DNA of 63,867 nt, counting the filler, from Stramenopiles sp. TOSAG23-6 (Eukaryota): the NCBI GenBank assembly GCA_900128565.1. It is 3 parts of 3 records of this genome, joined end to end, with 100 filler letters (N's around TTAATTAATTAA, not from the genome) between each part and the next. Parts side by side here need not be neighbours in the genome. Positions count along the whole stretch, not along the records: positions 21,971 to 43,775 come from LT636023.1; 2 more parts are not named here. One strand, 5' to 3'. The translations under genes were made by a program, and so were the position numbers. Shown here in pieces: positions 14,076-43,927 of the stretch; position 1 is the first letter of the stretch, and each line of letters opens with the position of its first letter. Below the pieces are notes generated by a model. The model did not search any database, was not told where the DNA came from, and saw nothing but the letters and a program-made list of their open reading frames with translations.

Positions 14076-16428
14076 TCAAAATTCCTGAAATGTAAAATAA
14101 TTGGTATGCTCTTTGAATCCATAATCAAAAGGACTATAATTGTAAAGACTTTGCATTTCATTTATGTCTATCCCACAAGTTTGCAATGACTTTTCTAGTT
14201 GCTCTATATAATGAAGGTTATCAATCCTTGTTAATTTTCGTTTCAATTTCGAATTTAATGTATCAAATTTTTTACTTTGTCTGGAGTGAAAGTTAACAGA
14301 GTCCTTGTACCATTTCTGTGTGTATGTAATATATAACATTGGCCTGATTACATTACTTTTGTTTTCACCTCCCCCATGTATTTTGGAAAAATATTATTTT
14401 TTTTCGGTAAAAATTTGTTAGGTACAAAATTTCGTATGAAAAAAAAAANGTNAAAAATTCAATTTTGAAAACGTACATGAGTTAATTTCATATCAAAAAA
14501 TATTGCGCCACCTGCATTAAGTTGAGGTGAAAGAATATATTTTGAATCTTCCCTTTTATTTCTATGTGAATTTATATGAAACCTTGTCGGGCCATGTTCT
14601 TGTTTTATATCTATAAGTGGCCAAAATGAAATTATGTATTTTGGAAAAATATTTCAAAAAAAATCGTTAGGTACAAAATTGCGTACGAAAAAAAAACGAA
14701 TTTGAAAAAAAATTAAAACATACATACCATGTGACTTTTGAGTTTTGCCATCCGAAAACAACGGCCCAGTATCAGCATAAAATGTAAACAATATATCAAA
14801 ATGAAAAATAAAATATGTATTCATATGGAAGATGAAAACATCATATATTTTCTATAGATTTTGTAATACAAAAAGGGATTGAAAGTATTCCTTTACAATA
14901 AGTAAAAAAAATGAATATTTCATACGAAAATTCATACCTAACAAAATAAATAAAGTAAAACATACATGGATTATGAAAAAATATTTCAAAAAAAATCTAA
15001 AAAAAATCGTTAGGTACAAAATTTCGTACGAAAAAAAAAAGACGAATTTGAAAAAAAATAAAACATACATGAGAATGCTGACTTTTTGTCTTTGCTAATG
15101 ATGTCACGGATGAGAGTATACCTATTTCAAAATCATCATTTCCAAGTATTGAATTTAATAAATAATTCACTACTTTATTATCAACCAGCCCCGGATCATC
15201 AAATGTATCGTGAAAAAATATTTTATTTTTATTTTTTTGTTAGGTACAAAATTTCGTACGAAAAAAAAAACATCAAAATTGAAAAAAAATAAAACATACA
15301 TGGTTTTTGTAAAGGTAGATGAACGAGATAACGACCCTCAGAGCTAATCTTTCCCCTAGGGGAATTGTACTTGTCAATTTTCGTTTTCGATTCGTCTAAA
15401 TATTTCTTGAATTCAATTTTTTGAGCTTTTTGAATGTCTCTCAATAAGGATCCATTTATCACGTTTTCTATTGCAACAACACCACATGTATCAAGTATTC
15501 GAATTGCATGCCCAAGTATACGTAATGTTTCGATACTCTCTTTGTACATCGATCGAATTGAACTTGGTATATAAACAGTTATTTTTTCTGTTGTACTACA
15601 CCAGTTTTTGAGTTTTTCGTCTATACTGTTATATTTTAAACGCCAATCAATATACTTTCCACTAAATGTCCAATCGAGAGGCTTAATAATGATACCATTG
15701 TCTTTCGCTCTTTGAATAAGTCTAGATAAATGTTGTTCACTTTGAACTTCTATAGTTCTATCAAAACCACAATTCAAGGCAAGAACTTTTTGGAATGTTG
15801 TAATTGCAGCTGAAAGAAAATAGGTTCTTTCATCCTCTTTTCCTAACCAAATGAGACGCATGTATTGTGAAAAATATTTTTCTTGTAAAATTTGTTAGGT
15901 ACAAAATTCACTACGAAAAAAAACTTCATACAAAAAAAAAAATAAAACATACATTTGCGTAATCGCAATGTCATACAAATTAGCCACATTGTATTTTTCA
16001 CGAGCAACATCAATGAATAGTTGAAGCGCAAGTTGACTCTTTTCTTTGTCAGAGTAGTGTTGATTAGATAAGTCAATTGCTTTACTTCGTAATGCTTTTG
16101 AAGTTAAACATTTGTATGGTTCCATCGCCCACGCCTTTACGACTTGACGTTGCTGTACTGTATCAGATATACCAAACTCAGATAAAGCTGCACCGGATTG
16201 AGATTCCTCCAAAATAGCAGAAAAAACTTCACCTTCAATATCTTCGTTCAATATTAATTTCGAACGCTCGGAACGCACGTTGTAATTATCAACGTCTCCA
16301 AGCAAATTATTCAACCAAACTACTATTTCAGTAGAACTCCAGCTTGACTGTGCTTTCTGATTTTTAACACATTGGGCATATAATACAACTACTAATGATA
16401 GATGAAGAGTAAATGTAAAAGACAACAT
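14076..16428 (-). CDS. PhyH-type Fe(II)/2-oxoglutarate dioxygenase with signal peptide and SAM-like N-terminal region; exons 16428-15953, 15859-15300, 15202-15069, 14776-14724, 14633-14477, 14375-14076
   Basis: After removing the inserts: QHSH-ADTGPLF (HxD), FWPLIDIKQEHGPTRF...SH, AGGAIFFDMKLTH-GGGENKS...RPMLYITY. All exon phases are compatible. Confidence 0.85.
14376..14476 (-). other. Family intron, GT-AT (101 nt)
   Basis: ACT CAT|GTACGT...AAATACAT|GGG restores the HGGGEN distal-His motif. Confidence 0.88.
14634..14723 (-). other. Family intron, GT-AT (90 nt)
   Basis: GGT AT|GTATGT...AAATACAT|A ATT; frame restored. Confidence 0.85.
14777..14965 (-). other. Second, abutting GT-AT intron segment containing an inverted family core
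   Basis: Starts GTATGTTTT directly after the preceding element and ends TTTTAT|GCT GAT, as the HxD motif requires. Confidence 0.65.
14966..15068 (-). other. Family intron, GT-AT (103 nt)
   Basis: TCT CAT|GTATGT...GTACCTAAC...ATAATCCAT|. Confidence 0.8.
15203..15299 (-). other. Family intron, GT-AT (97 nt)
   Basis: CCA T|GTATGT...GATACAT|TT GAT gives KPFDDP. Confidence 0.85.
15860..15952 (-). other. Family intron, GT-AT (93 nt)
   Basis: CAA AT|GTATGT...AATACAT|G CGT joins ORFs 15895-16449 and 15229-15861. Confidence 0.85.
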
Positions 16429-19664: not shown

Positions 19665-20136
19665 CCTTTTTTCAAATAACTATGTCTATACTTAAGAGAC
19701 TATATTACTTTCAACACTCTAGTATTGTGCCTATATTATGATCAATTCAACTGAGTTATTTAATGAATATCCGGGGCTGTGAAGCACTGTTAAAGAAACC
19801 ACCGGTCAGGCACAGTTGCAAAGAAGCCGCTGCAGGAACTGAGCGGTCAAGCTGTTAAATTCCTGAAAATGGTACCCGGATCACCACATGCCGAATGCCG
19901 AAAAATAAAAATTGAATAATTTTTCGCCCGCTCGCTCGGCAAAAAGATTTTTTTTTGAGTAGCATTTTTATCTCAGATCATCTAAAAAAGGTTCATAATA
20001 TTATTATTTAAACAGGTCTACTTGTGGTGAGCAATTATTATATAAACACAATATAACTGTCATGATTTGGGTAAAGGGTTGTGCTTAAGATTGGGTTCAT
20101 TACAGTGGTGCTTTTATTATTGCTAGTCCACAAAAG

Positions 20137-21785
20137 ATGCTACCCAAGTTGAGTATTTCACTTCCAGAAACTGAGAGTACGCCGTCTCGTAAGTCTTATA
20201 AACCCCTTTCTCCTCTTTCAACAAAGCGTACGTTCAGCGGCGTCGGATCACCATTATCTCGTCGTCCAAGTAAGAAAGTGCTTGAAACACCAAATCATTC
20301 TTTTGTAGATATAAAATTACTTGAACGTATCTTTTTAGACTTGGATCGCGATGGAGATGGTTTAATATCTCGTGATGAGTTTAGGGAAATCTGCTCTAAT
20401 ACAGATTATTTAAATCTCAGCCCAGAAGAAGTAGAGCGAGTGTTCCGTTGCATGGATCGTTCTGAACGCGGTGTCCTGAATTTTAAGCAGTTCAAAAAGG
20501 CAATTCGTCGAAGGAGGTTTATGTCGAGTATAGTGAGCACATATCACGTCAATTTTTTATTCAAAGTTATGCCAAACTACGACTACACAAAGTCGACAGC
20601 TGTGAACTATAAATCTGGTGACAAGACGTTTCATGGTGATTTTGCTAGTATTCGTAAGAAACTTGACTATTCTTATCATGTAAATTATTGTAAGAAACGT
20701 CAGTTGTGGCAGGATGCGGTAATTAAAAGTGTTGCTTCTCGCGGCGAGAGTCAACCAAATCCTTGGGTTGTTTACACATGTGGTCCAATGGGTGCTGGTA
20801 AAGGCTATGCTCTATCGTGGATGTCAAGATTTGGTTATTTTCCTCTGGAAGACATAGTGCATGTTGATCCAGATCATTTTAAACGCTTGATGCCTGAGTG
20901 GAAAGGATATCTGGAACATGTTTGTTTTCATCATATATTTGAAATTTATTTTTTTTCGTACGAAATTTTGTACCTAACGAATTTTTTTCACTAAAAAAAA
21001 TATTTCGAAATATTTTTTCACAGTATAGGATAATGAAACAGCTGGAACTCACTGTCACTTAGAATCTGCATATATGCAAGAGATTGCACAAGAAGTCGGT
21101 TTACAAGACTCGGTAAATATGTGGATTGATGGTAGTCTTCATGATGTACGTTTTCATTTGAATTTCAAATTTTTTTCATACGAAATTTTGTACCTAACGA
21201 TTTTTTTTTTGAAATATTTTCCCAAAATACACGGTTTATGGTTCTCTCAGGTATTTACCACATTACGTCTACGATTTCCTCAATATCGAATTGCAATTTT
21301 TTATGTATATTGTAGTGAACAAGAAGTTCGAAGACGCATGTATGTTTATATGAATTTCTAATTTAATATTTTTTCATACGAAATTTTGTACCTAACGAAT
21401 TTTTTTTTGAAATATTTTTTCACAATACATCGCTAAACGAGCTGAAGAAACTGGGAGAGTCATTCCTGAGAGTATGATTCAAAATTCTCTAGATTCACCA
21501 ATCAAAAGTTTGCGTTTACTTACACCTAAATGTGATTTTGTTGCTCAAATTAATAATGAAGGTCCAACTCCTATTCTTGAAGCTTTTGAAACTATTGACA
21601 GATCAGGTCGTTGGCAACTCATAAGTAATCAATTTTCAACTGATGCAACGCACCCTCTTGATTTCCCAGAAATTTTATCGCCTCTTTTTGTTTCAAAATT
21701 ATATCCTGTACAATGTAAAATATCAAATAATACTGCATTTGGGCTAGTAGTACCAGATGAAGAAAATTGTAAATTGAGCAATTAT
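20137..21785 (+). CDS. EF-hand + zeta-toxin-like P-loop kinase protein, 3' end lost in gap; exons 20137-20919, 21029-21145, 21233-21339, 21431-21785
   Basis: EF-hand DRDGDGLISRDE; P-loop GPMGAGKG; HVDPDHFK; WIDGSL; RAEETGRVIP. Confidence 0.85.
20920..21028 (+). other. Family intron, GT-AG (109 nt)
   Basis: GAA CAT|GTTTGT...CACAGTATAG|GAT restores the frame. Confidence 0.88.
21146..21232 (+). other. Family intron, GT-AC (87 nt, in frame, stop-free)
   Basis: CAT GAT|GTACGT...CCCAAAATACAC|GGT gives DGSLHDGLWF. Confidence 0.78.
21340..21430 (+). other. Family intron, GT-AT (91 nt)
   Basis: CGC AT|GTATGT...AATACAT|C GCT gives VRRRIAKRAEETGR. Confidence 0.88.
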
Positions 21786-21814
21786 GTATGTTTTATTCAT
21801 CGTACATTTCAAAC

Positions 21815-21849
<35 letters not shown>

Positions 21850-21870
21850 AATATTTTTATAAAAAATTTT
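21786..21870 (+). other. 5' part of a family intron truncated by the gap
   Basis: TAT|GTATGTTTT followed by poly-T up to the Ns. Confidence 0.7.
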
Positions 21871-21970
21871 NNNNNNNNNNNNNNNNNNNNNNNNNNNNNN
21901 NNNNNNNNNNNNNNTTAATTAATTAANNNNNNNNNNNNNNNNNNNNNNNNNNNNNNNNNNNNNNNNNNNN
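21871..21970. other. Assembly gap with artificial TTAATTAATTAA linker
   Basis: N-runs flank a six-frame stop linker. Confidence 0.95.
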
Positions 21971-22648
21971 GAATTATACCAAAGAATGCTCAAAGATGGT
22001 AACAGCAATTCAAAAATTGCTTTAATTTTTTTTTCTTGAAAACAAAATAAAAAAATTTTAATTTCAGATTTTTTTTTGTCGAAAGAAATGATGATTAACT
22101 CTGATCGATCAATGTTCTTCTATGTATATTTGGATTCCATACCATTTTTTCTATATAAAAAAAAATGAGAATTTCCATTTCTGTTTTTATTATATTCAAA
22201 ATTCCAGAATTTTTCAAAAGTAGACAAAAATGCTACAAATCTTTGAAACTTAATAATTTTTCACTTGTAAATATTTTCTGAATTCGTCTTTAATTTTGAC
22301 ATCTCTAACGTGTTTTGTATATAACAACAGTTTTGTATGCTTGTCATGTCTAGATTTTCTTATATTGTTGTATTATATTTCAAAAAAAAAAAATTGTTAG
22401 GTACAAAATTTCGTACCAAAAAAAAATTAAATTAATTTTTTTTTAATTTTATGTTACAAAAAACTGTTTTTTTTCATTAGGTTACACATTTCGTATGAAA
22501 AAAAATATAATGAAATATGAAAAAAATACCTTTAAATGCACGTTTTTTAAACGTAAAAAAAAAAGAAGATGAGTTTAAACTAGATGGCACACACATGTCT
22601 CCGCAATATTTGACTGTATTGACTAGTAGAGGATTTGAGAAAATGAAT

Positions 22649-23790
22649 TTATTTGAGACAGCACTGCGGGGCATGGCATGACTCAAAGCGGCATGACGAT
22701 GATAGTTTGTTTGAATTCAACCCCCTGAATTGTATGATAATTGAGTATATTATATGTTTGTTAGTATTATATTATATATATATATATGAATCAGATACAG
22801 TTATTATATGAATTTTGATAGATTACTTACAACGATGTGAGATTTGTTAGTTGACCAATTTCTTTTGGAATTTCACCAGATAGAATATAATGCAAAGCCC
22901 TGAATTGTATGATAATTGAGTACATAATATGTTTGTTAGTATTATAAACGTGTATACTATTGTTTTTAGAATCAATTATTATGTGAAACTTACAAAGAAG
23001 TGACAGACCCACTAGCTTCACATCTGACACCAGACCATTTGCATACATCCGGATTCGTTATCCATTGATCCCTGCCTACCCAAGTATTGCCCCCAGTGGC
23101 ATTGTATAACGCTTTTAAAGCTGTAAAAGGGGAGGGTCTTAGTGTTGGAATATTTGTTGGTGTCAATGTTGTTGGTGTCCATGTTGGTCTTAGTGTTGGA
23201 ATATTTGTTGGTGTTAATGTTGTTCTAAGTGTTGGTCTTAGTGTTGGCATATTTGTTGGTGTCAATGTCGTTGGGTTTGTTGTACCAGACGTTACACTCA
23301 ATGTTACATCAAATGTAAGAGCTATATAAGTAAAAACAGCACTACCAGCAAGACCAAGAAGTGATTTTAATTTACAGACAGTTGAATATCTTCCTGTAGG
23401 ACAAATTACTCTTTGAGTTGGCACATAAATAACAGCAGGATCTCTATCGGATGCTTCTCTTTTAACTGGAATATCGTCAAAAAGTGGAACACTTACATAC
23501 CTGACGTCACCGTCATCATAGAAGTCATCATCGCGCATTTGTAGTAACTGTTCTGGTTCGGGTGAAGCATTAATGGTATCTCGTTCATCTAGTTGATATG
23601 TGTTACCAGTTCTGACAGAAACAACTATAGTACCACTACAAAGTAAACATACAAAGCAATACCAAAGCGCTACTTTATTGCACACTACAAACATATTCGC
23701 TAATGTTGCAATTTTATTGTTCCACTGAAGGAATAGATGCAGACGAAGAAAAACGAAAACACGCCAACACACAACGCGCGTGCTGAACAT
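22649..23790 (-). CDS. Secreted/membrane LRR protein with PT-rich stalk; exons 23790-22994, 22899-22831, 22724-22649
   Basis: LRRNT cap ALKALYNATGGNTW...W...DVCKWSGVRC, plant-type LRR LSGEIPKEIGQLTNLTSL, PT repeats. Confidence 0.75.
22725..22830 (-). other. Conventional GT-AG intron (non-family)
   Basis: TT|GTAAGT...TACTAAC...TTCAG|G. Confidence 0.85.
22900..22993 (-). other. Conventional GT-AG intron (non-family)
   Basis: TT|GTAAGT...TACTAAC...TTCAG|G. Confidence 0.85.
23137..23277 (-). repeat. Coding minisatellite encoding PT repeats
   Basis: About 3 copies of TTLTPTN(I/M)PTLRP. Confidence 0.85.
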
Positions 23791-24001
23791 AAATTTGAAG
23801 CTAAAACAGGTTTGTCATAATATGTCATGGTGAAAAAGGTAAACAAACACGAAATCACACAAAAATTTCAAATTCAAATTCAAATTTTTCAAAATTTCAA
23901 ATACTATCCTCCCTCCCCTCGCGCACCTTCAAAGTTCACCTGTAATTAATTATTCGTGCAAAGCTTCATTGAACACATCTAAGTGAGCAATATAAACAAT
24001 C

Positions 24002-26341
24002 ATGACTGGGGCGTCCAAGACTGAAGGTCTTGGTTTCGTCGCAGTCACTGCTTCAACAGCGGCTGCACGCAAGTCGCGTAAGAGCCGCACACGTAAATCT
24101 CGAAGAGAACGTCGAGGTCGAACTAAAGATGTACTCAAACCTTCACCAAAACCTAATCATCAAACTCCAAAGAATATGGTACCTTCAAATTACGTAAGAA
24201 CAAACAATAATACTGGTGATAAACAATGGAAAAAAATTGTTCAAAACCGAAACGCCCCTTCTCCGTACTCCCAAAGAACCCAAAGAACAACTGTTCTAGA
24301 TCCAAAGCCAGCTGCACTGGAACACGCTCGAGTGAAAGAGCTCAAGAAACAGCACTTTCAAGGGAAAAACTTTGAGAAAGAGAATGTTTCACACAATATG
24401 AATTCTCGCACGAAAAGAAGAAACGGTGCTACCAAAGAAAGGTTTGTAAAAGTAAAAGAAGCGGAGCGGCGACTAAGTCACGTTGGGGAATCTCCAGTTC
24501 GTCGTTTGTCAACTGGAGGACGCCGACTTTCTGGATCTCTCCATATAGGTCCGTATAACCACTCTAAAAAAATGAACAAAAACGTTGATGCCGTAAGCGA
24601 GTTAGAAACGTCATCGAATTCACATCATCGTCGCCTTTCATTTACGAAAAAGAAAACGAAGAAGAGAGAAATACAAAAAGATGTACAGATTCGAGGTCGA
24701 AACTCAAAAAGAGTTCAGGGGACAAAATCTCGATCTCTATCTCGAGCTCGTCGACTTCCCAGTTCACATGTTCATGTTCAAGCTATGAGACAACCACAAA
24801 AGAAGAAAAAGATTTCATATGAACAACTTACACCACCCAAAGTTGAAGTTCCAGTGGTGATTTCTTCAGGGTTTTTCCAAGCAAAACAACGCTCTCATTC
24901 TGTAAGCTTCAAAAGTCCATCATTAGACAGAACTCTTGGCCGTCTACGTTCCACATCTAAAAGAAGATCCAATCGAAAATCAGGAGCGCAAAAAAGAAGA
25001 GCACGATCTATTGCTCGTAAAAAAAGAGAAGAGGAGGTTTCAGGAAATCCATCCGATAAGTGTGCGACTGCTCTTCAATTCAAAGAAAACAACTTTTCGA
25101 ATGAATATATTCAAAACGAAAGTCCAAAACGATCGTCTTCTGTACCACCGCAATCATCCGCTATGAAGGCATCTCGTTCTATTGCTAATCCTGGTATAAC
25201 AAACGTACAACATGAAACTTCTCCTTTCGAAAACGTAAAAGAGATCAATCGAATTCGTTCTATCAAAAACCGACAAAAACGACAACAAAGTAAAACACCT
25301 CGAAAAAGAGATAAAAAAAAGCATAACAATAAGTCGTCTAAATCTCATCGATCTAAAAGAAAGGATAAAAAGAAAAATGCAATGAAAGCCTTGAACACTG
25401 GGTTAAAAAAGAATGTAAATGATCAAAGCCGTTTAAGAGTATTTTCACCTAATGGGGTCGATACTTCGGTTCATCTCGAATCAACTGGAAAACAAGAAAG
25501 TCATCCAAATGCTTGGTTTTCTCCATCTGGAAATATCGCGCAAAAAAAACGACATCAGGAACTATTGCGACAACGTGCAAGAGAAAGTGGCATTGGTCTT
25601 AATAAACTGAATATGAGCTGTACGTCTCTACTTGATTTCGACGCAAAAATGCTACCGTCACCTGCGCCAGTTGCGAAACAAACAGAAAGCTTTATTATGA
25701 ATCGTTCATTGGTAAAAACAAAGCAAATGCTAACGCCACCTAAACCTAAAGAAGATGACACATCTCCAGATCCCAGTAAGTGTGTTCGTAGTGCATTTTC
25801 TGCTGTAATTGGAAAGACACTATTGATCAAAGACAAAAATCGTGCTGATCTTCAAAACCTTGATGCGATCTTTTCTGCAGAGTCCCGACCAGAAACGCCA
25901 ATGTCACCATTGGCTACGATTGCAGCTGCAAAAGGCTTATCAAATCTGAGTCTTCTGTCGGATAACAAAATGGTTGATACACCAATGAGTGATGAAACAC
26001 CGCTCACTATATCGATAGATAAATCGTCTGATACACACTCAAGTGAAAGAGAGTCAGTGAAATCTATTGCTGAAGGAAAGGAAGGTAGAATTTATCTGGA
26101 AATATCTGATGAAGAGAATCTATCTGATCTAGAGAATATACCTACTTTAGAAGTGACCAAAATGGAAGCAAGACTTGAAGGGAAACTTCGTCAACTTCGG
26201 AAATTGCGAGAGTCCAAAATGTCCAGCAAAGCACAAAGTGAAAAAAGCACAGTATGTGGAGTTTCTATAAGACGTAATACGCGGCATACACGAGCAAATG
26301 CAGCAGAACGCGGCGATGCTTGTCAGTGTGTAATAGCGTAA
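24002..26341 (+). CDS. Basic low-complexity protein ending in a CaaX motif
   Basis: Intronless 779-aa K/R/S-rich ORF ending ACQCVIA*. Confidence 0.75.
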   Translation: MTGASKTEGLGFVAVTASTAAARKSRKSRTRKSRRERRGRTKDVLKPSPKPNHQTPKNMVPSNYVRTNNNTGDKQWKKIVQNRNAPSPYSQRTQRTTVLDPKPAALEHARVKELKKQHFQGKNFEKENVSHNMNSRTKRRNGATKERFVKVKEAERRLSHVGESPVRRLSTGGRRLSGSLHIGPYNHSKKMNKNVDAVSELETSSNSHHRRLSFTKKKTKKREIQKDVQIRGRNSKRVQGTKSRSLSRARRLPSSHVHVQAMRQPQKKKKISYEQLTPPKVEVPVVISSGFFQAKQRSHSVSFKSPSLDRTLGRLRSTSKRRSNRKSGAQKRRARSIARKKREEEVSGNPSDKCATALQFKENNFSNEYIQNESPKRSSSVPPQSSAMKASRSIANPGITNVQHETSPFENVKEINRIRSIKNRQKRQQSKTPRKRDKKKHNNKSSKSHRSKRKDKKKNAMKALNTGLKKNVNDQSRLRVFSPNGVDTSVHLESTGKQESHPNAWFSPSGNIAQKKRHQELLRQRARESGIGLNKLNMSCTSLLDFDAKMLPSPAPVAKQTESFIMNRSLVKTKQMLTPPKPKEDDTSPDPSKCVRSAFSAVIGKTLLIKDKNRADLQNLDAIFSAESRPETPMSPLATIAAAKGLSNLSLLSDNKMVDTPMSDETPLTISIDKSSDTHSSERESVKSIAEGKEGRIYLEISDEENLSDLENIPTLEVTKMEARLEGKLRQLRKLRESKMSSKAQSEKSTVCGVSIRRNTRHTRANAAERGDACQCVIA

Positions 26342-26760
26342 AATATATTAAATATTATATTGTTGCAGAGTATATATATAAATACCTGTACTCGTTGATT
26401 TACATTATAAACAAATCGCAATTAAGAGCGAATAATGTAAAAATGGCATTATAATAGAAATAAGATTGTAAAATAATAAGATTTAAAAACATAGTAAAAG
26501 CATTTGAAAAACAAAACAAACACGAAATAATGTGGTTATTCAATGCAATTACGAAAACATTACAGATAAAACTTGGCACAAAATATATTCATAATTATGG
26601 CAGCATAATTCAGCCACATATTGAATAAAAAATTTTATGATAAGAAAAAATAATAAAATGAAACTAAAATGATTATTTCTTTGGATTGACAAAACTAGAC
26701 GCATTCACAAAACATTTATTATAGAAATATTAGCATATGATAATCACTTTACAGTGTTTC

Positions 26761-29700
26761 TTATACTATATTTTCGTCGTCTAATGAATCGCCAGTATCC
26801 CCAGCTAATTCTGAAAATGCAGAATCAAAATCAGCTTCAAAACTGTCTTCTTCATTTTTTTCTTCAGCTTTGTTCGTTTCGTCAACATTAGATTCTTCAT
26901 ATTCGACAACTTCGATATCTTCTTGAGCATCATCATCATCAAGTGGGTTTTCAAACGCACTAAAGTCAGCCCACCTGCCATCACCTGCATCATCATCACT
27001 TCCGCCACCATCACCAGATATATATGTATTATCTGCCATCCCGTATTGTTGCATAAGAGAAGATATATGACCTTCGTCTTCATCAGATGAATCATCAGAA
27101 GAGTCCATATCATGATCACCTCCATTAAAAGCATACCAATCAGAACCACCATTTGCACTGTCACTGTTTCCAGCTCCTACAGTACTAAACATGCCATCTT
27201 TAATGTTTAGCGAATCACCACCAGACACCATACCAGCAAAATCTGGTCTATTATTATTATCAAGACTTGGAGAATTTGGAAGACCACCAAAACTATCGCC
27301 TGCCATTCCGAACATTTGGGATTCAGTATTAAATATTTCATCACTTTGAGCAAGAGCATTAATTGCTTTAAGATCCCCACTCGCGAGCCAACGTTGCCAT
27401 GCTTCATGCACTGAAACGAAATCATAAATATGGATACATTGAATCTTTTCTCTTTCTGCCTTTTTGACAGAATCTTTTGGATCTACTTCTTCCAACTTTT
27501 GTTCTTTTAATTGATCTTCAGCCATTTCGACGGCGGATTCAATACAATTTGCCATAATATGACAATATCCATAGTTGCCTTGAGCTTTTGTAGGCATCTT
27601 CTTAGGGGTACTGATTTTTTCGTCAGATGTCGAAATATCTGTTTCCTTATTCATTTTTTCATTCGAAACTACAGATATATTTTCTTTGTCATCATAACAA
27701 GTTAGCAACCGATCAATTAGTCCATAACCACTAGCATTAGATTCACTATCCGTTTTCCCATCCTCTACAGACGCAAAAAGAAGTTTTTGTATAAAAGACA
27801 TATTATTCTGAATGACTGCCTCGAGTATAAAGACAACATATCGATGAAGCATATTGCACCAGGGAAAATCGAAAAATAAATCAAAACAAATCTGGACAAT
27901 TCCGTTTCTACCAAGATTAGCCAGTAATAAATCTGTATTAATAAAACCTAATGTGATTACTAAAGACATCAATTGAGTTAATAAAAGTCGACTGGGCCCT
28001 AAACGATACATATATTGATGAAAATATTTCAAAAATTAAATTTTTTTGTTAGGTATGGAATGTANTAATTAGGTACAAAATTTTCTATGAAAAAAATAAA
28101 CTCAAAAATAAGAATGAAAACGAACTCTTTGACTCCATAAGTTGACATCATTGTTCCACATGAAGTCTTCAATACCTTGCATAAATTTTCATGCTGTGAT
28201 AAAATTGACAAAACTACTGGAGGCATTGGAGACGCTGTAGAATACTTTGGAAGTTGTCCCAATTCCTATATTGTGAAAAATATTTTTTTTTTTTTTTACC
28301 GAAAATAAAAAAAAATGTTAGGTATGAAATTTCGTACAAAAACAAATATGTAAAAATTTAAATTTTGAAAACGTACAAGTGCTTCCGTTGCATTCATACC
28401 AGAAACATGAATTCTTTCCCCAGGGGAGGTAGCAGATAATTCAATGTCATTTTGTTCCTGTATATATCTCTCTTCTCGATTCAAGTGCTCACGTTCAATT
28501 CCTTGTGCTATATTCTCTAATAAACATACCAAAACTTTAAGTGCTGATTCTTGTGCTCCTCGACTACGTCGTTTCATTTCTACATGTATTGTGATTTTTT
28601 TTTTTTAGTTTCAAAAAAAAAAAAATCGTTAGGTACGAAATTTCGTATAAAAACAAATGTAGGTAAAAAATTGTATTGTAACAAACGTACATCTACAGAG
28701 TCATCTAATAAAACTGAAGTCATCTGACAAACAATTTCCACGAGTCTTTCACAAGAGTCTTTTTCAAGGAGGATATCATATACTGTGAAAAAATATTTTT
28801 TTTTTTTTTTTACTGAAAAAAAAAAAAATCGTTAGGTATGAAATTTTTTTTCGAGAAAAATGTGGGTAAAAATTTAATTTTGAAAAACGCACATTCACAC
28901 GAACTGTGGGTGTGACATGAGTGTGTACAGCAATACTTTGCAACACTTCTGTTGCATTTTGCTGCATATCAATCGGACAATCCGGAGAAATACAATCCAA
29001 CAAAACTTTAATAATAGCTGCATCACCGCCAAAAGCTTTGGGTTGACAGTAACTTTCTTGAGCTTCAGCAGTGGCTGTGCTATTCAAATCTGTAGCTAAG
29101 TCTTCTAGTATGCCATCGACGTTATCTGTATCACCTTCATTATTTTCTGTATCATTTGTCTCGCTATCTTTACCATCTGTATCAATGGAAGTCCTTCTAA
29201 AAGACGAAGTAAACGAGTCTAACTCGTTATTCAATTCCATTTTTTCTTCTGCTACATTAAGAGGTAAAGCCAACATAATTCGCAAAATTTCGGCCACTGA
29301 ACAATCACCCATATGTCGAACAAATTTTGGTAACATATTTGAAGCAACATCTGTATCCAGAAAAAGTAACACTTCCTGAGGTTTTCGCTGTGAAATCATT
29401 TGTAACACTTTACAAATATAACCAGATTGCCACGTTGGAAGTGGCGCTTTTTGCTCTAGAATGTTGAAAATGCTCAACAGAAGATTGTTATTATCGAAAT
29501 CAACAAGAGCATCAATAATTGCTGTGACATCGCAACAAATAATCTCACACGCCAAGTATGGGTACTTAAGTCGCTCAACCTCGGTTGCTGTATCACTTGG
29601 AGGATCCACTATAAAACTTATAAGGCTTTGTAAAGTCTCACCTTTAGTGAGATATTCGATTAAATTGCTATTGAGTCCTTTTACCTCTTGTAAAAGTTCC

Positions 29701-29963
29701 TCTTCTTCCAGAAGTTCTACAAGGCTAAAATCTTCTTTTTCCAAAATGTCGCTTACAGGGCTATATTTGTAAAGTGTAGACAGGAAAATAGAAGAGTTAG
29801 CACACTGGAGCAAAAAAAGGAATTGTCATGAGTTAAACAAAAAAAAAGTGAAAAGAATACTCATGAAAAGATGAAAAACATTGAGAAGTATATATTGTGC
29901 GTACCTCCTTGTATTGAAAAAGATATTCCCTGACGTCCAAATGGAGCCACTGCCATCCTCCAT
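26761..29963 (-). CDS. SAPS / PP6 regulatory subunit (SIT4-associated protein); exons 29963-29905, 29760-28893, 28777-28691, 28583-28377, 28265-28126, 28009-26761
   Basis: SPVSDILEKEDFSLVELLEEEELLQE, KYPYLACEII, LGPSRL, DLFFDFPWCNMLH, GNYGY and an acidic tail. All exon phases are compatible. Confidence 0.92.
28010..28125 (-). other. Family intron, GT-AT (116 nt)
   Basis: AAA GA|GTTCGT...CAATATAT|G TAT gives KEYRLGPSRL. Confidence 0.8.
28266..28376 (-). other. Family intron, GT-AG (111 nt)
   Basis: GCA CTT|GTACGT...CAATATAG|GAA restores the frame. Confidence 0.88.
28584..28690 (-). other. Family intron, GT-AT (107 nt)
   Basis: GTA GAT|GTACGT...AATACAT|GTA restores the frame. Confidence 0.85.
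28778..28892 (-). other. Family intron, GT-AT (115 nt)
   Basis: GTG AAT|GTGCGT...CACAGTATAT|GAT; the nearby CAG would frameshift to a stop. Confidence 0.83.
29761..29904 (-). other. Conventional GT-AG intron (non-family)
   Basis: AG|GTACGC...GCTAAC...TATAG|C CCT gives RSPVSDIL. Confidence 0.8.
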
Positions 29964-30232
29964 TGTACAAACAATCAGAATACGGGAACACCTATAGACC
30001 GAGGAAGATTTTTTGCAATTGCCACTTATGAAGTATAGGCGCGAAACATCAAAGCGATGATTGAGATTGATTATTGATTTTGAGATAAATTCCCAAATTC
30101 GCTGCTCTTCGATCGATTTACAATGATTAGTAGTAATTCCATCAGCTTATAAAAAATGTCAAATTTATAATATAAATAGTACTTTTTGTGTGTTCACATG
30201 AATAACGCAAAAGGTATAATAAACCATTGATA

Positions 30233-32097
30233 ATGATGGGGACTCCGCCAGTCCTCTCGTATACAGTCCGTCGAGATCCTTTGTTTCAAACAGAGCGAAA
30301 TGAATCAGATAATAGAGAAAGTGATCGAGACATTGTTAGTATTTTCCCTGTATATAAGCGACGATTTTGGCTTCTGTTTTTATTGTCTTCTTCAAGTTTT
30401 TTACAGTCTTTGTACTGGATGACATACTCCACGGTACGTCATGAAGTTAAAGAAATGTATCATTGGTCTACCGATAATGTATTTGACCTGGTGACATGGA
30501 GCCAAATTGTTTATATTCCTCTCGCTTTTATCGTAGGCCCTTTAGACCATCATGTTGGCTTAGTTGGGAACATAACGATTTCCTTTATTCTAATTGCACT
30601 TGGTTCTTCCATCCGCTGCATCCCAGCGAGTTCAGAAGTATCATTAATTCTTGCCCATGTTTCACAGTTTGCAATTGCTTGTGCTGGTGCAATTGTCGTC
30701 ACATCCCCCTCAAAGTTATCCGCAACATGGTTTGGATCACGCAACAGAGTTGTAGCAACTTCAGTGATTATTGTTTCAAATCTTCTGGGTATTGCAGCAG
30801 CCCTTCTGATACCCTTTGCGGATATGAATTCTGTAGATATCCGTCATTTATTACACATGCAGGCGATTGTGGGTGGTGCATTTGTGCTTTGTTCAATACT
30901 TGATTTCATATGTTGTGGATCAATACCGAAAGAAGCTCCAAGTCGATCTGCATGCTTACAGCGTCAACGAAGAATTGCTACCAGAAGTGGATCAAGAACC
31001 GAATGTAGACAGCGTTTTAATGAAAATGAAGATATTTCATGGAATAGTGCAGTGCATCAAAACTCAGAAGACAGAGTTGATAAAACATGTACGTTTTCAT
31101 CATGAATTTTAAATTTATTTTTTTCGTATGAAATTTTGTACCTAACAACTTTTTTTTTTTTTCACAATACATGCCTGTGCCTATGTTTAGGATGTTCGAA
31201 TATTTGCGCTGAAGTTCCAAAACTATTGAAAAACTATAATTTTATGCTGTTAGCATGTTTTTACGGATTGAGTCATGGAGCTTATGTTGGTTGGATTAGG
31301 GTTTTAACCCCATTGATGGTTCGAAAAAATAGTGGTGCTCATACAGAATCCGATTTACTCGGCCTAACTACAGTCTCTTGTGGTGTCGTTGGTGGTGTCA
31401 TTGGGGGTATTTTTGGATCGTGCTATCTTTCAAGATTTGGCTCAGTAAAAGGTTTGATGGCATGTTTGCTCTTGTTCTCTTCAATCTGTTTTTCTATATT
31501 TGTTTTATTTGCAAATGATCCTTTTGGATGGTGTCCAACAAATGATGTGAGTGCCTTTAATGTTTTTATTGCTCAAAACGAAACCCCAAATGATGATGTA
31601 TGGATTCTTCATAATAATAAGCTAGTTATGAGAATCCTTTTTGTATCAAATGGATTAGGTTCTTTCTTTTTACTCGCTACAGCAGGTTTGTGTTATGAAA
31701 CTGCAGTAGAATCTGTGTATCCATCAAATGAAGTATCAACTAATGCAACGCTAATGCTTACAATGCACATTGTAGCTGGTATCTTTGAAATAGTCACTAA
31801 AATGATCACAGAGGAAAAAGATATCCTCAACTGGATTCTTCCAATCAGTACCTTATTTTCTGTCTTTCTTCTTCTACCTTATGTATGTTTTATTTTTTTT
31901 AATTTTTTATCTACATTTTTTTTCGTACGAAATTTTGTACCTAACAAAAATTATTTTTTTTTTTTTTGAAATATTTTTCCAAAATATAGAAAGAGTTTCA
32001 TAAAAGGACTCTTGTTGATGAAGGGCAAACAAATAGGCACAGAGTTATGGTTTATTCTCTCTCAGAAGAAGAAGATGAAAGTGCTACAATATTTTAA
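30233..32097 (+). CDS. MFS transporter, SLC49 (FLVCR/DIRC2)-like; exons 30233-31088, 31173-31882, 31990-32097
   Basis: VYKRRFWLLFLLS, PSKLSATWFG..R..AT, YETAVESVYP..E and multiple TM helices. Confidence 0.88.
31089..31172 (+). other. Family intron, GT-AT (84 nt)
   Basis: ACA T|GTACGT...AATACAT|GC; using the next AG downstream would create TGA. Confidence 0.85.
31883..31989 (+). other. Family intron, GT-AG (107 nt)
   Basis: CCT TAT|GTATGT...AAATATAG|AAA gives PYKEFHKR. Confidence 0.88.
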
Positions 32098-32441: not shown

Positions 32442-32526
32442 AAAAAAATCTCAAGAGAGATCAAGACCTCTCTATCGTAAAGTCGCTGAATAAGTCAGCA
32501 ATGATAAAACCATTGCAAAAATTATC

Positions 32527-35500
32527 ATGACAAACTCTAAATGTATAGTAGATCAGTTTGTAGATAAATTGCGAGAGCATTATCACGAACGCCATAGTCA
32601 TGGAAATGTTACTCAGAGCGATGATTCATGCAAAAACATTCTATTGCTTTTTAGAAACCATATGCCTTCAATATATAAGCGATTTGTTTCGCCCCATGTT
32701 AGGGCTGCTTCGCGGGAGGCAAACGCAAAACGAACATCTCTACCACCTCCCCGTCATATAGTGCCATTTTGTACAATGCTGAATCTGTTATTGACAAAAG
32801 CTGTGTGTCCACACTCCATTTCTATTTTCCATAGCTGGCCTTTGGAAGAAAAGTCGTTTGCTCAATTTTTCCAGTTATACACTTTACTTGGTTTACAACA
32901 ATTCAAAATACATCACCATATAATTGCAGATACCCTCCTGTTACTTACACAAGTGCTATATGAATATCAACTACTTTCTTTTGTGTTATTGTTTGAAGAT
33001 GCAACACTATTGTTACAAGACCTGATAGTAGCCGAGGAATTAATTCAGCGAGCACCAGAAAAATTTTGTGGGCTTGAAATAGCAAGTTTCTGTACATTTT
33101 CTAAGAGTTGCAAGCGTCAGTGGGTAGAGCATAATAATAGTAATAAAAGAAAAGAAACAAAAAAATGTAAAGTCCCGGGCGATTCTCCAAACAGAAATTT
33201 TTTACCTTTAATGATATGGCTTCCTGGAAAAGGAATAAAAAGTGCATGTGAAGCAATTACAAAAGTAAGACTTCTTAAAAGAGCTACACAGTGGATTTTA
33301 GCGGGTATGTTGGTCCCTGAATCTGCCCAACAATTAGCGCTTTCAATGCCCTCTACAATTTCAAAGCCTCCGACGAATTCAGTACCAAACCCTAATTCTA
33401 TGTCACCACCTCCACTCATTGCGACAGAACGTGAAGAAACACCTACTTCTACTGCAAGAAATTACTATGCTGGTAATGGGTATCAATTTATTGTTAGTAG
33501 CACAGGTATAGTTGACATGTTATGGTCATTAACACAAGCCTCTATTAATAGGTGTGCAAACAATATTGTCCAGAAAAAAACGAACACAGAAAATTCGAAC
33601 TCAATAAACAATTATTCTACTTTCACTTTACAGTTACATGTAGCGACATCAACATTACGACTCATTCAAAGTATGCTTATTGTGGGAGGTATTATATATA
33701 ATGATATTGATGCCAATATTGGTACTTCTATAGCTGGGACAGGATTCTCTACAATATTGACTTCTATTTTGAAATTTCTTGAAAGTTTGCATGAATATGA
33801 CAGACAAAATATTGGTATTGATAATAGCCCTTCTAATGATGTAAGTAGAATAAGATCTATTATCTGTGATATTGATAAAGCAGCTTCGGCATGTATTGCT
33901 CTCTGTCTCCGAATAAATTTTTCGCATTCAGTTAGTCAAAAATGTTTTGGTTTTAGTACGTGTCCAAATGCAGTTACCAGTGTTATATCATCAAATATTG
34001 CGACTATTATAAGAGATCATCGGCATAAATATGGATCAAATAATGCATCTAGAGATGCATCCAATTCTATTTTGATGAAAACTTCTGGTAATTATTTATT
34101 GCTTGCTAGTAATATTTCTGACATTATAAAGGTTATTGTAAGTACGGTCCATTCAACACATGCGTTGCAATTACGTGTCACTTTATCACAAACTCTACGA
34201 AAAATGATTGACACAAATCTCATAGCTCCTGTCCGAGCGATGGATATGATAGGATTGTTAATGCGCGTATTTATTAAAGAGGAATATGATACAAAACATA
34301 TTACCAAAAATACCAAAAATACCAAAAATACCAAAAACACCAAAAATAGAATGAATAATGATTTTGATGACAATGTATGTTTTTATTTATTTTTTGAATT
34401 TCGATTTTTTTTCGTACGAAATTTTGTACCTAACGTTTTTTTTTTGAAATATTTTTCCAAAATACATGTTCATCATGTATTTAGATATGAAGTGAGAAAA
34501 AGTATTGTACAATGTATAGTATCTGTACTAGATAGTGTTTCCGAGGTAGATCGAGTGAATATATTAACAATTGCGAATGAAAATTTTGTCGGAAATTCCC
34601 GGGATAAACAACATGATACATGTAGTACTATTCAGGTAACAAATATTAGTAGAAATAAAGGTAAATCAACTCGAAAGAGAAAACGAAATCAAACAGAAAA
34701 AATATTGAAATGTCAATCTAACCCTAACCCTAATGATAATTTCGAAAAAAAAAAGAAGACAGTTCACAATATGTCTCCATTATATTTCAAATTCAAATCG
34801 ATGATTAATAATGCAATAGAAGCATCAACAGAAATTCAAAGTATGTCGCATATATGTACAGTGCTTATTGCTTTGTTACGAGTATATCATTATAATAATG
34901 TTAGGGTTAATGCGATGGAGGATAGAAAGGAAAGTAACCCTAACCCTAATCATCAGTGGTCTGACCCTGGTACCCAAGAAAATAGAACCACTGATGCTCT
35001 GGAAAATAGAAATATTGATAACCCTAACCCTAATAGTAAATCTGCAGCATTTTGTATAATACAATGCTACTTGACCCTTCTGAAATCTGAAGGGTTTTGT
35101 ACTCTTCTGGAAACATCAGACGAAAACGAAAGATTGACAATTTCAATAGTGAGTGCGGCACTTGATGTATTTTTTATTTTTTTTCAATTTTTTATATATT
35201 TTTTTTTTTTTGAAAATTTTGTACCTAACAAATTTAAGTTTTTTTTTTTGAAATATTTTTTCATCATACATGCCGCACACGAAATTATCATTGCTTTATC
35301 AGGAGACTGTATAGTGGCAGATTGTTTACAAGAATGGAATATCCTGGCAAAATTAACTTTTCGTGTAGGCTGTTGTAAACAAATATTAAACAACTTTCAC
35401 TTTGAGAATTTGGAGATTTTTGAAAATTTTGTGCCGATTCCACTTCGTGGGATTTCTTTCTGTCTTTCAGTTTTACCTCTAGTGCTTTCAAAGATGAAAT

Positions 35501-43465: not shown

Positions 43466-43555
43466 GTATGTTTTATATGAATTTCTAATTTAATATTTTT
43501 TTCATACGAAATTTCGTACCTAACGATTTTTTTTGAAATATTTTTCAAAATACAA
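43466..43555 (+). other. Family intron with uncertain 3' end (AA at the acceptor position)
   Basis: GCG T|GTATGT...GTACCTAAC...AAAATACAA; the downstream sequence does not continue the ATR kinase. Confidence 0.55.
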
Positions 43556-43710
43556 GCTCGATTAAAACAAAGAAAGAAAAAAAAAAAAAAAAATGTAGAT
43601 AAAAATAAAATTGAAAAAAAATCTGAAAGTCAAATTTATTTTACAGATAAGAATCGTTGCCAAAAATATGTTGAGAGATGTAAATCAACCTATTTTACCT
43701 TTGTTCACGC

Positions 43711-43775
43711 GTAGGTTTTCAAAATTGAATTTTGAATTTTTTTTTTTGGTAGAAAATTTTGTACCTAAGAAAAAA
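43711..43775 (+). other. 5' part of a family element truncated by the gap
   Basis: GTAGGTTTTC...GAAAATTTTGTACCTAA followed by Ns. Confidence 0.6.
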
Positions 43776-43875
43776 NNNNNNNNNNNNNNNNNNNNNNNNN
43801 NNNNNNNNNNNNNNNNNNNTTAATTAATTAANNNNNNNNNNNNNNNNNNNNNNNNNNNNNNNNNNNNNNNNNNNN
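43776..43875. other. Assembly gap with artificial TTAATTAATTAA linker
   Basis: N-runs flank a six-frame stop linker. Confidence 0.95.
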
Positions 43876-43927
43876 GTACCTAACAAATTTAAGTTTTTTT
43901 TTTTTGAAATATTTTTCCAAAATACAT
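43876..43927 (+). other. 3' part of a family intron ending in AT
   Basis: GTACCTAAC...CCAAAATACAT|GAA AGA opens the RNB exon in frame. Confidence 0.78.

Follow-up and report, generated by a model that had tools for sequence, protein, structure and literature searches.

The intron at 28778-28892 on the minus strand, a 115 nt interruption (GTGCGT...CACAGTATAT) of a SAPS-family (PP6 regulatory subunit) gene, belongs to a family of about 30 near-identical, transposon-like introns in which the unit has a normal GT at its 5' end and mostly AT at its 3' end. The reading that we favour, with a probability of about 0.55, is that these are transposon-derived introns which are removed by the spliceosome and which have a fixed 3' site that is independent of a terminal G. 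The true anomaly is the absent terminal G, rather than the skipping of AGs. All of the introns recognised in the window (the whole stretch of 63,867 nucleotides from Stramenopiles sp. TOSAG23-6 that was analysed) are members of this family, and the copies differ among themselves, so that they are not one collapsed repeat.

The window contains 29 full copies of 84-121 nt and four fragments. The family layout runs from GTAYGTTTT at the 5' end through a TACCTAAC block that hardly varies and a T tract to a 3' terminal inverted repeat, which ends ...A-N. The 5' end has the U1/U6-fitting GT of a U2-type intron: G at +1 and T at +2 are found in 29/29 copies, G at +5 in 28/29 and T at +6 to +8 in 29/29. 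Conservation at this end reaches +9. The ACC-AA columns of the branch block are invariant in the 29-copy alignment, and CCTAAC, with T runs after it, is present in 28 of the 29 copies, the exception being CCAAAC in the copy at 42548. The family thus has the CTRAY-type branch motif and downstream pyrimidine tract of U2-type introns, with branching itself predicted from the sequence; the block sits 27-55 nt from the intron end. The 3' motif is ATATTTTTYCAMAATACA-N, its position -11 being divided between C (16 copies) and T (13). A occupies position -2 in every copy (29/29), followed as the last base by T in 22, by G in six and by C in one; the final AG of a U2-type intron is therefore lacking in 23/29 copies. 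In 23 of the 29 the first base of the following exon is a purine (G in 20, A in three). TACCTAACGA, with at most one mismatch, occurs 30 times compared with 2.3 expected and a maximum of six in 100 shuffles, and a profile made from the family copies matches 33 places in the window and none of the 119 unrelated matches listed.

The copies that end in AT on the minus strand are at 7078-7191 (photolyase/cryptochrome gene), 7353-7443 (with an in-frame CAG at +6), 14376-14476, 14634-14723, 15203-15299, 15860-15952, 28010-28125 (GTTCGT...TATAT, with 146 open codons through the junction), 28584-28690 (with a TAG 4 nt downstream that is out of frame) and 45461-45551 (GT...AT, in a PNK3P-domain gene). 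Those on the plus strand are at 21340-21430, 31089-31172 (MFS transporter gene), 34375-34467 (in the ATR-type kinase gene at 32494-43775), 35167-35271, 35593-35713 (which includes three N), 36534-36652, 39994-40086, 42289-42388, 42548-42648 (the copy with the degenerate branch block), 44099-44191 (in a DIS3L2-like gene) and 63751-63852 (GT...AT, followed by 15 nt of exon and then the window end). The copy at 21146-21232 (plus strand) ends in AC. AG ends are found at 7656-7755, 12861-12978 (actin-family gene, with a T/A-run hairpin) and 28266-28376 on the minus strand and at 31883-31989 and 43466-43556 on the plus strand, the last of these ending AAG, with a putative downstream exon and low-complexity sequence up to the contig end. 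Among the fragments, a partial copy at 22364-22428 (minus strand, profile positions 27-97) lies outside the recognised ORFs, the 5' half of a copy at 43711-43770 (plus strand) is cut by a contig end, and a 3' half at 43875-43927 (plus strand) is at a contig start and ends ACAT before the DIS3L2-like exon.

Removal of the GT...AN unit is needed for the long reading frames to stay open in 11 genes, with spliced ORFs of 283 to 2269 codons. With this positional boundary the frame is open at 26 of the 28 junctions directly tested, which are those of all copies but the one at 63751, where only about 15 nt of exon lie downstream. The two junctions that are not open are both in one gene (g3) and are resolved by a composite intron of 217 nt at 14852-15068 (minus strand, GT...AG overall), in which the sense copy 14966-15068 and an inverted copy at 14852-14965 are placed tail to tail. 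A 474-codon ORF is obtained only if 15068-14852 is removed whole, and so 14966-15068, which had been listed among the introns by the sequence-only reading, does not stand alone. In the DIS3L2-like gene the ORF is open through the junction at 44099-44191, and the upstream exon stops at RNB profile position 313/326 and at residue 708 of a solved DIS3L2 chain. Preservation of the frame is automatic if GT...AN is the inserted DNA plus one copy of the target site; the open frames consequently show what has to be removed and not the position of the cut.

At four non-AG junctions the boundary agrees exactly with the numbering of Pfam profiles or with alignments of homologues. At 7191-7078 the FAD_binding_7 profile runs from 32 to 76, continues through a split codon and resumes at 78-195, and at 42289-42388 the HEAT_ATR profile is matched over 2-31 and then 32-81. 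The positional boundary at 21146 retains the residues GLWFSQ, which are present in 15 of 18 spanning homologues and are deleted if the in-frame CAG at +18 is used; that at 21340 retains AKRAEETGR, present in 16 of 17 spanning homologues and deleted by the nearest in-frame AG. The conserved residues beside these boundaries could be remnants of a recent insertion. Among the 22 stand-alone non-AG copies there are only three in which the conserved donor is in frame with the first AG at 12 nt or more past the branch A, and the acceptor would thus not be the first AG beyond the branch exclusion zone, as is expected of a U2-type intron. In-frame GT/GC-AG pairs within 60 nt exist at every copy (2 to 22 of them) and are not discriminating. 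These results support a 3' boundary at a fixed place, the end of the conserved 3' motif, and AG scanning does not explain it. The claim of the sequence-only reading that the 3' site is set by the motif or by pairing of the intron ends, and not by AG scanning, is supported for the fixed position relative to the motif and is not supported for end pairing, which shows no covariation.

The SAPS-family gene (26764-29825, minus strand) has a Pfam SAPS match on its last exon, and removal of the flagged intron and three sibling copies gives a single ORF of 871 codons. In the flagged intron, all of whose features are given on the minus strand, the element supplies the 5' splice site GTGCGT at 28887-28892 (family consensus GTAYGTTTT), the TACCTAAC branch-type motif is at 28831-28838, its A at 28832 being the presumed branch point, 54 nt from the end of the intron, and the 3' terminal motif ATATTTTTTCACAGTATAT, as defined by the 29-copy alignment, is at 28778-28796. 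The intron at 28892-28778 has the GTGCGT start and, as had been noted, ends CACAGTATAT. Within a T13-CAGT-A16 stretch at 28796-28828 the first CAG (28815-28813) falls into the loop of a U/A hairpin that is predicted by folding; a second CAG (28783-28785) lies 5 nt before the inferred end. It had been proposed that use of this second CAG would cause a frameshift to a TGA, and this is confirmed with the donor at 28892: the TGA is reached after 21 codons. The T13-CAG, with its G at 28813, is the stronger skipped acceptor, 19 nt past the branch A, and its use leads to an immediate stop, so that both CAGs give stops with the family donor. The donor GT at 28900/28899, paired with the CAG at 28785-28783, gives an in-frame canonical alternative. 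The T13-CAG, this alternative and the composite nature of 14966-15068 had been overlooked previously.

The sister copy at 20920-21028 (plus strand), in an EF-hand/Zeta-toxin-domain gene, starts with GT and ends CACAGTATAG; its terminal TAG is used and its first CAG, 5 nt before the end, is skipped, as had been claimed. This junction is the same as in the database CDS P0001, and of 34 spanning homologues 33 carry residues at this place. Other AGs lying between CTAAC and the end inferred for the copy had also been pointed out in 35593-35713, 42289-42388 (an AAG 10 nt past the branch A) and 14966-15068 as acceptors that are passed over. They are present, and further examples are found in the copies at 35167, 15952 and 63751, but all of these AGs are 10-13 nt past the branch A. 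This zone is normally unused, and the skipping of the AGs in all six copies is therefore unremarkable.

Protein searches were made with exon A of the SAPS gene. There was no match among proteins of near length, three distant matches (none of them a model from the same organism) among longer proteins and, among 1.84 billion representatives, best identities of 41-43% over residues of about 20-190 only; no transcript-derived protein of the same organism across the flagged junction was found in these searches. The region of the junction is variable in an alignment of 24 SAPS homologues, where the positional and canonical models are not separable. The predicted fold of the flagged intron is no more stable than those of shuffled sequences (z-score of -0.94), and pairing of its ends is not predicted (pair probability of 0.02).

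The family has two features of introners: 29 similar copies in 11 unrelated genes, and terminal inverted repeats with nine terminal pairs. Across the family 82.9% of the cells of this terminal pairing can pair, compared with 26-62% in slid registers; there is no covariation in the terminal stem, the same 82.9% of paired cells being also reached by 169 of 500 shuffles, and pairing of the ends is predicted (p > 0.4) in only 12 of the 29 copies. The exon bases at -2 and -1 are A and T in 25 and 27 of the 29 copies, respectively, and the element ends in AT in 22. As AT is its own reverse complement, a target-site duplication and an extension of the repeat are inseparable, and no empty site was found for the duplication. 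The copies were also considered as AT-AC introns, which was rejected as a general rule with five exceptions: the 5' flank is not AT at 28125 (GA), 45551 (TT) and 63751 (AC), the copy at 21146 ends in AC and that at 28892 would become AT-AT. Every one of the 29 genic copies runs in the same sense as its host ORF, and the only inverted copy lies inside an intron, namely the composite. Such a uniform orientation is expected of strand-specific RNA signals and not of DNA excision.

No transposase was seen in the window, and Rfam and tRNA scans of it returned nothing, including no snRNA genes. An exact 22-mer of the element core had no matches in viral_contigs and none in metagenome_contigs. A gapped three-motif pattern was found at no fewer than 119 loci; among the matches listed none fits the family profile, and these loci were rejected as relatives of the element and are attributed to chance.

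The flagged interruption would thus be one member of a young, MITE-like 'introner' family derived from a transposon, in which each copy brings along a strong 5' splice site (GTAYGTTTT), a palindrome together with a motif of the branch type (TTTCGTACGAAATTTTGTACCTAAC), a tract of T and, at the 3' end, a terminal inverted repeat. The copies would leave the pre-mRNA through the spliceosome, most likely the major (U2-type) one, with branching at the adenosine of CTAAC and a second-step cut at a fixed position, right behind the base that closes the 3' terminal repeat of the element (...Y-A-N). Apart from the pyrimidine at -3 and the A at -2 nothing would be kept, the terminal G being dispensable (T > G > C). 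We know of no established precedent for a terminal T as the majority class at U2-type 3' splice sites. Some earlier AGs would be bypassed for being too near to the branch (10-13 nt), the T13-CAG of the flagged intron for lying in the loop of a hairpin between the U run and the A run, and the CAG at -5 for lying just before the end of the element, where the positional site would win, as in the sister copy. RNA splicing would take place at exactly these bases, and this adenosine would be the one that branches. Candidates for what recognises the 3' end are a second-step active site with relaxed requirements, a U2AF-like factor that has diverged, and a transient pairing to the 5' end; a structural explanation of the 3' site is no more than a possibility.

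For the flagged intron only, canonical splicing could join the upstream donor at 28899-28900 (GTGTGA, minus strand, 8 nt upstream of the element) to the second CAG. The resulting mRNA would lose eight exon bases, keep the last five bases of the element and remain in frame without a stop, with the protein changed in only three or four residues at a junction that is too variable among SAPS homologues to separate the two models. This would mean, however, that the donor carried by the element itself, the boundary mark in each of the 28 other copies, is bypassed together with the better T13-CAG 30 nt earlier, and the homologous CAG of the sister copy must be skipped in any case; moreover, we estimate that a frame-compatible GT occurs within a few tens of bases by chance in around half of cases. 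We regard this as distinctly unlikely. A minor (U12-type) or transformed minor-like spliceosome, with the branch site in the A-rich 3' motif 6-9 nt before the end, would apply to the whole family and is also unlikely. The 5' core [G/A]TATCCTT of U12-type introns is absent (G at +5 in 28/29, T or C at +4 and T at +6 in 29/29), although conservation does extend as far as +9 and most copies are also readable as AT...AC. Such spliceosomes accept varied terminal dinucleotides and place the 3' site at a short fixed distance from the branch site, and a 3' site at a fixed position is as predicted by this mechanism, but the best-conserved internal block is of the CTAAC type and is 27-55 nt from the end, whereas the branch site TTCCTT[G/A]AC is matched only partly by the 3' motif, in which CC is variable, and the window is without snRNA genes. 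In the preprint on Physarum, GT-AT is given as 17% of those U12-type boundaries that are non-canonical, and new U12-type introns are proposed to arise from a transposon whose termini are inverted and which duplicates 2 nt of its target (bioRxiv 10.1101/2020.10.12.336362).

Removal independent of the spliceosome, as in euglenids, would rely on the paired terminal repeats, with an unknown machinery making staggered cuts in the helix. The complementarity of the ends noted above and the 2-nt direct repeat that overlaps the boundaries speak for it, and the purine exon start in 23/29 copies resembles the purine preference described for the Euglena code (PMC12501133). The signature of that code, CDG at +4 to +6 and CH'G near the end, is nevertheless absent, the positions +4 to +6 being YGT and -8 to -6 being A/C-A-A; GT and the branch motif are strongly conserved and a T tract is present, and the lack of covariation and the small number of copies with predicted pairing (12/29 at p > 0.4, with 0.02 for the flagged intron) further make this mechanism quite improbable. 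It is very improbable that the elements are never removed (dead genes, or MITEs in pseudogenes), are removed at the DNA level or are artefacts of assembly. The assembly is a draft with runs of N and contig joins, and contigs break within copies, but the 29/29 sense orientation, the intact flanking ORFs in 11 genes (including ATR, DIS3L2-like, SAPS and photolyase) and the differences between the copies all argue against such an origin.

Taking spliceosomal removal at a fixed, G-independent 3' site as the preferred reading, we consider the odds to be about even that, in a marine stramenopile lineage labelled MAST-3, the second step of the spliceosome has no need of a terminal G and that a proliferating GT...CTAAC...YA-T transposon with an AT target site made GT-AT the majority class, possibly replacing nearly all older introns. 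The MAST-3 label comes from the database record of one of the genes in the window. Seven seawater runs, six of which are recorded as RNA, contain 5-13% of the words of 20001-30000, a share that is not evidence of expression or habitat.

The only CDS found in the database for the window, P0001, has canonical AGs forced upon it, which deletes six and nine conserved residues, and also loses the P-loop to a 54-nt intron that is spurious. Errors of this kind make it likely that the proteomes of this lineage used in phylogenomics and functional surveys are damaged in the same way. If GT-AT has indeed become the majority class in this lineage, tools that force AG would annotate genes of such genomes wrongly by the thousand, and part of the low gene counts or of the apparent pseudogenes reported for their assemblies may be artefacts. 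If the preferred reading is correct, the family would be a natural system with textbook 5' splice and branch sites in which the last intron base alone is free, offering a clean way to study how the 3' site is found by the spliceosome and how much weight is carried by the contact of the first intron base with the last. It would also be the third or fourth independent lineage in which a transposon invasion is paired with relaxed splice-site rules.

Several known systems share parts of this behaviour. The introner elements of Amoebophrya (Syndiniales) are described as repeated introns resembling non-autonomous TIR transposons, with inverted repeats that join both ends, direct repeats of 3-5 nt that overlap the exon/intron boundaries and splice sites that are not GT-AG and on which standard gene prediction fails (Farhat et al. 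2021, PMC7789003). The same account reports no clear terminal dinucleotide signature and no detection of U1. The present family is alike in its transposon-like repeated introns, inverted repeats, direct repeats at the boundaries and non-GT-AG sites, but has a perfect GT with an extended consensus and a near-invariant CTAAC, with only the last base deviant; its direct repeat is 2 (to 3) nt and its lineage is stramenopile by database label. The introns of the tunicate Fritillaria borealis are described as MITE-derived, lineage-specific and removed by the major spliceosome, and their 3' ends are reported to be A-N rather than AG, with diverged U2AF paralogues recognising the non-canonical 3' ends (Henriet et al. 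2019, summarised in PMC11282704; Soo et al. 2026, PMC13326754). Lineage-specific introns and A-N 3' ends are shared with Fritillaria; the 5' end is canonical here, whereas it is described as non-canonical there, with AG-AC and AG-AT prevailing.

The introners of Micromonas, Aureococcus and other aquatic eukaryotes are described as DNA-transposon-like, with TIRs, target-site duplications and their own splice signals, a new intron arising wherever one inserts (Huff et al. 2016; Gozashti et al. 2022/2025). They have in common with our family the many near-identical copies in unrelated genes and the self-supplied splice signals, but the cited accounts give them canonical splice motifs, while 23/29 copies here are without an AG end. 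The U12-type introns of Physarum polycephalum, whose 5' site is given in the preprint as [AG]TATC[CT]TT and whose branch site, TTTGA, is placed at 10-12 nt from the end (Larue, Elias and Roy, bioRxiv 10.1101/2020.10.12.336362), are similar in their proposed transposon origin, their non-canonical termini including GT-AT and a 3' site at a fixed short distance from a motif; in contrast, +5 is G here and the branch-type block is 27-55 nt from the end. The nonconventional introns of euglenids are described as being without a pyrimidine tract and excised as circles by an unknown machinery (PMC12501133, PMC11282704, PMC4770533), and in Euglena the CDG at +4 to +6 pairs with a CH'G 5-6 nt before the end (PMC12501133). 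Non-canonical borders, inverted repeats that join the ends, junction repeats resembling target-site duplications and a purine at the exon start are shared with this account; the CAG/CTG pairing signature is absent here, and the classical 5' and branch signals are conserved. In the literature, supplements aside, no paper was found that connects introners or non-canonical introns to MAST-3, Nanomonadea or Incisomonas. The G-independent positional 3' site is best read as a variant of the known non-canonical, transposon-derived introns, here with a canonical 5' end.

The window, eukaryotic sequence with a G+C content of about 34%, is AT-rich and gene-dense, uses the standard code and holds at least three contigs, spaced by N44-TTAATTAATTAA-N44 at 21871-21970 and 43776-43875. 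With at most one mismatch, TACCTAACGA occurs 30 times in the window against 2.3 expected, and its surroundings make up a complete repeated unit of 84-121 nt. We curated 28 copies and added one later; within the window, a profile built from these 29 recovers all of them and four further fragments, and it matches none of the 119 unrelated loci listed. The consensus is (AT)GTATGTTTT ... TTTCGTACGAAATTTTGTACCTAAC - T run - GAAATATTTTTYCAMAATACAT. With the introns anchored at their ends, all 29 have G at +1, T at +2 and T from +6 to +8, and 28 have G at +5; at the 3′ end, position -3 is C (23) or T (five), -2 is A in every copy and -1 is T (22), G (six) or C (one). All 29 lie in the sense orientation of the host frame, and the single inverted copy sits within an intron. 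Among the ORFs modelled in the window no intron outside the family was recognised; two suspicious ORF gaps looked intergenic.

The flanking exons are also biased: the upstream exon has A at -2 in 25 copies and T at -1 in 27, this AT is preceded by C in 12 of the 29, and G opens the downstream exon in 20. Such a (C)AT|G context is palindromic and has the look of a preferred target site. The AT flank is kept in four of the six AG-ending copies (7755, 12978, 20920 and 31883, each named by its 5′ end), where the last base seems to have changed from T to G once the copy was inserted, by drift or by selection towards a canonical acceptor. Two partial copies matched by the profile lie away from recognised exon junctions: 22364-22428 (minus strand) is close to the start of a contig, and 18703-18764 (plus strand) is where an EB1-like gene ends. 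They could be dead copies or introns of UTRs.

The intron at 28892..28778 (minus strand) reads GTGCGTTTTTC...TACCTAACGA-T13-CAGT-A16-TATTTTTTCACAGTATAT and splits a gene that has, in its last exon, a match to the SAPS family of PP6 regulatory subunits. The sequence-only reading, which held that the acceptor here skips available AGs, is confirmed with corrections. Its coordinates and letters are right when the minus strand is read directly, and in the translated model the CAG 5 nt before the end, used with the family donor, does cause a frameshift and a TGA. The first AG, a CAG after the 13 T's and 19 nt past the presumed branch A, leads to an immediate stop. The sister copy at 20920-21028 (plus strand) must, as had been claimed, skip a CAG at -5 to reach the TAG at the element end; the database CDS has the same junction, and the residues there are found in 33 of 34 spanning homologues. 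The other AGs cited as skipped do exist, but most are uninformative because they lie 10-13 nt past the branch A, a zone that spliceosomes normally leave unused.

AG scanning fails to explain the 3′ sites of the family. When the conserved donor is joined to the first AG at least 12 nt past the presumed branch A, the frame is kept in only three of the 22 stand-alone non-AG copies (7443 at +6, 15299 at +30 and 21146 at +18), and in 21146 use of that AG would remove conserved residues. Cutting each copy from its GT through the base after the invariant A instead leaves ten gene models with unbroken ORFs that range from 283 to 2269 codons, and 26 of 28 junctions fall inside a long ORF. Both failing junctions belong to one gene, in which a sense copy (15068-14966) adjoins an inverted copy (14965-14852); removal of the whole of 15068..14852 (217 nt, GT...AG) yields a 474-codon ORF across all five junctions. 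The pair behaves either as a single GT...AG intron of 217 nt or as two introns that abut directly, leaving no exon in between. Its members, on opposite strands, meet tail to tail with the terminal AT in common, which suggests insertion of the element into the (C)AT(G) that arises where another copy ends.

Four non-AG junctions fit protein families exactly, independently of frame. At 7191-7078 (minus strand) the FAD_binding_7 profile runs from 32 to 76, through one split codon, and on from 78 to 195; at 42289-42388 (plus strand) HEAT_ATR positions 2-31 are followed by 32-81. On the plus strand, the positional boundary keeps GLWFSQ at 21146-21232, which ends in AC (a segment that 15 of 18 spanning homologues have), and AKRAEETGR at 21340-21430, which ends in AT (16 of 17). 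The exon upstream of 44099-44191 stops at RNB profile position 313 of 326 and, in a solved DIS3L2 chain, at residue 708. At the RNA level, we put the probability of a positional, non-AG 3′ boundary for the family at roughly 0.7.

The gene at 20089-21870 (plus strand) has a database CDS, P0001 (a eukprot record of 430 aa), with 428 of 430 aligned residues identical; we take the 'MAST32' in its source name as a MAST-3 label. P0001 relies on forced canonical splice sites: it ends intron 21146 at a CAG 18 nt further on and intron 21340 at a GAG 27 nt further on, losing six and nine conserved residues, respectively, and a spurious 54-nt GT-AG 'intron' costs it the P-loop segment QPNPWVVYTCGPMGAGKG, which aligned homologues retain.

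Side observations concern the contig ends and long ORFs. At the 43776-43875 join both contigs end inside family copies (43711-43770 and 43875-43927); an ATR-type gene breaks off mid kinase domain and a DIS3L2-like gene begins mid RNB domain. Past the intron at 43466-43556, the frame at 43557-43775 (plus strand) runs into lysine-rich low-complexity sequence where the remainder of the PI3K-type kinase domain was expected; this intron may have its true 3′ end past the point where the contig stops. An unbroken ORF of 4313 codons at 50810-63750 (plus strand), without a Pfam match at E ≤ 0.001, ends at a family intron. Short runs of the telomere-like hexamer CCCTAA/CCTAAC occur at 32136, 34723, 34939 and 35023 (plus strand) and 16570 (minus strand); those at 34723, 34939 and 35023 are coding, giving Asn-Pro repeats in the N-terminal part of the ATR-type gene product.

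A kept frame tells what must be removed, not the site of chemistry. AT both precedes and ends most copies, and the GT...AT unit therefore also has the form expected of a transposon insertion plus one 2-nt target-site copy. In AT-flanked copies ending in ACAT, cuts at GT...AT, TG...CA or AT...AC give identical mRNA, and the ambiguity is broken only by copies lacking the AT flank or the ACAT end: 28125 (flank GA), 45551 (flank TT), 63751 (flank AC), 21146 (ends AC) and 28892 (which would be AT...AT). An AT-AC reading is impossible for each of these; only GT...A-N fits 29/29 copies. Some canonical GT/GC-AG pair that preserves the frame lies within 60 nt of every copy. For 28892 it joins a donor GT at 28900/28899 to the CAG at 28785-28783 and alters only three or four residues of the protein; SAPS homologues are too variable at this junction to choose between the models, and the protein collections searched held no transcript-derived protein of this organism spanning it. 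We consider this canonical version unlikely, and a positional non-AG boundary at the RNA level reasonably probable for this intron.

As to how the 3′ site is set, between 27 and 55 nt separate the CTAAC adenosine from the intron end in different copies, which means that the site is not fixed by its distance from that motif. It follows the point where the 3′ repeat ends, also in the copies with a repeat one base shorter (7443 and 28125). The sequence-only proposal of a position- or motif-defined site is supported, while its suggestion of end pairing is unproven. The intron ends are complementary (82.9% of cells paired over nine terminal pairs, against 26-62% in slid registers), which is simply the terminal inverted repeat, and covariation in this pairing does not exceed that of shuffles (169 to 235 of 500 reach the observed values). 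In predicted folds 12 of the 29 copies have the G+1:C-3 pair at a probability above 0.4; in 28892 this probability is 0.02, and the fold of that intron is no better than shuffles (z = -0.94). Copies without the exonic AT still follow the positional rule. End pairing may help the choice of site. A subfamily (12978, 28376, 28690 and 28892) is predicted to form a T-run/A-run hairpin between the branch motif and the end, with the first CAG of 28892 inside the loop; AGs hidden in such hairpins are known from yeast. We lean slightly towards a mechanism in which a spliceosome, probably U2-type, would remove the copies, the element itself bringing the donor and branch site, and the second step would take Y-A-N at the element end as the 3′ site. 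Its main rival, removal by the minor (U12-type) spliceosome, draws on the tolerance of GT-AT ends and the distance-set 3′ site of U12-type introns, as described in part of bioRxiv 10.1101/2020.10.12.336362, but the U12-type 5′ core and branch site that this preprint gives are not those of the family, making it improbable.

The literature search, supplements aside, found no paper tying MAST-3 or Nanomonadea to non-canonical introns or introners; in the accessible text of PMC5778133 'intron' appears twice, in the methods for aligning transcripts, and in that of a 2026 preprint eight times, solely on genome architecture. According to the portions available of the sources cited, Amoebophrya introner elements have inverted and direct repeats and non-canonical ends, and make gene predictors fail (PMC7789003), Fritillaria has MITE-derived AG-AC and AG-AT introns with diverged U2AF paralogues (PMC11282704, PMC13326754) and canonical introners carry TIRs and target-site duplications (PMC7789003 among others). 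Other near cases are the Physarum U12-type expansion (bioRxiv 10.1101/2020.10.12.336362) and the euglenid nonconventional introns, whose defined signature, as given there (PMC11282704, PMC12501133), is absent from the family. The present family is unlike all of these in departing from the rule at its last base only, with a 5′ site and branch motif of the textbook kind.
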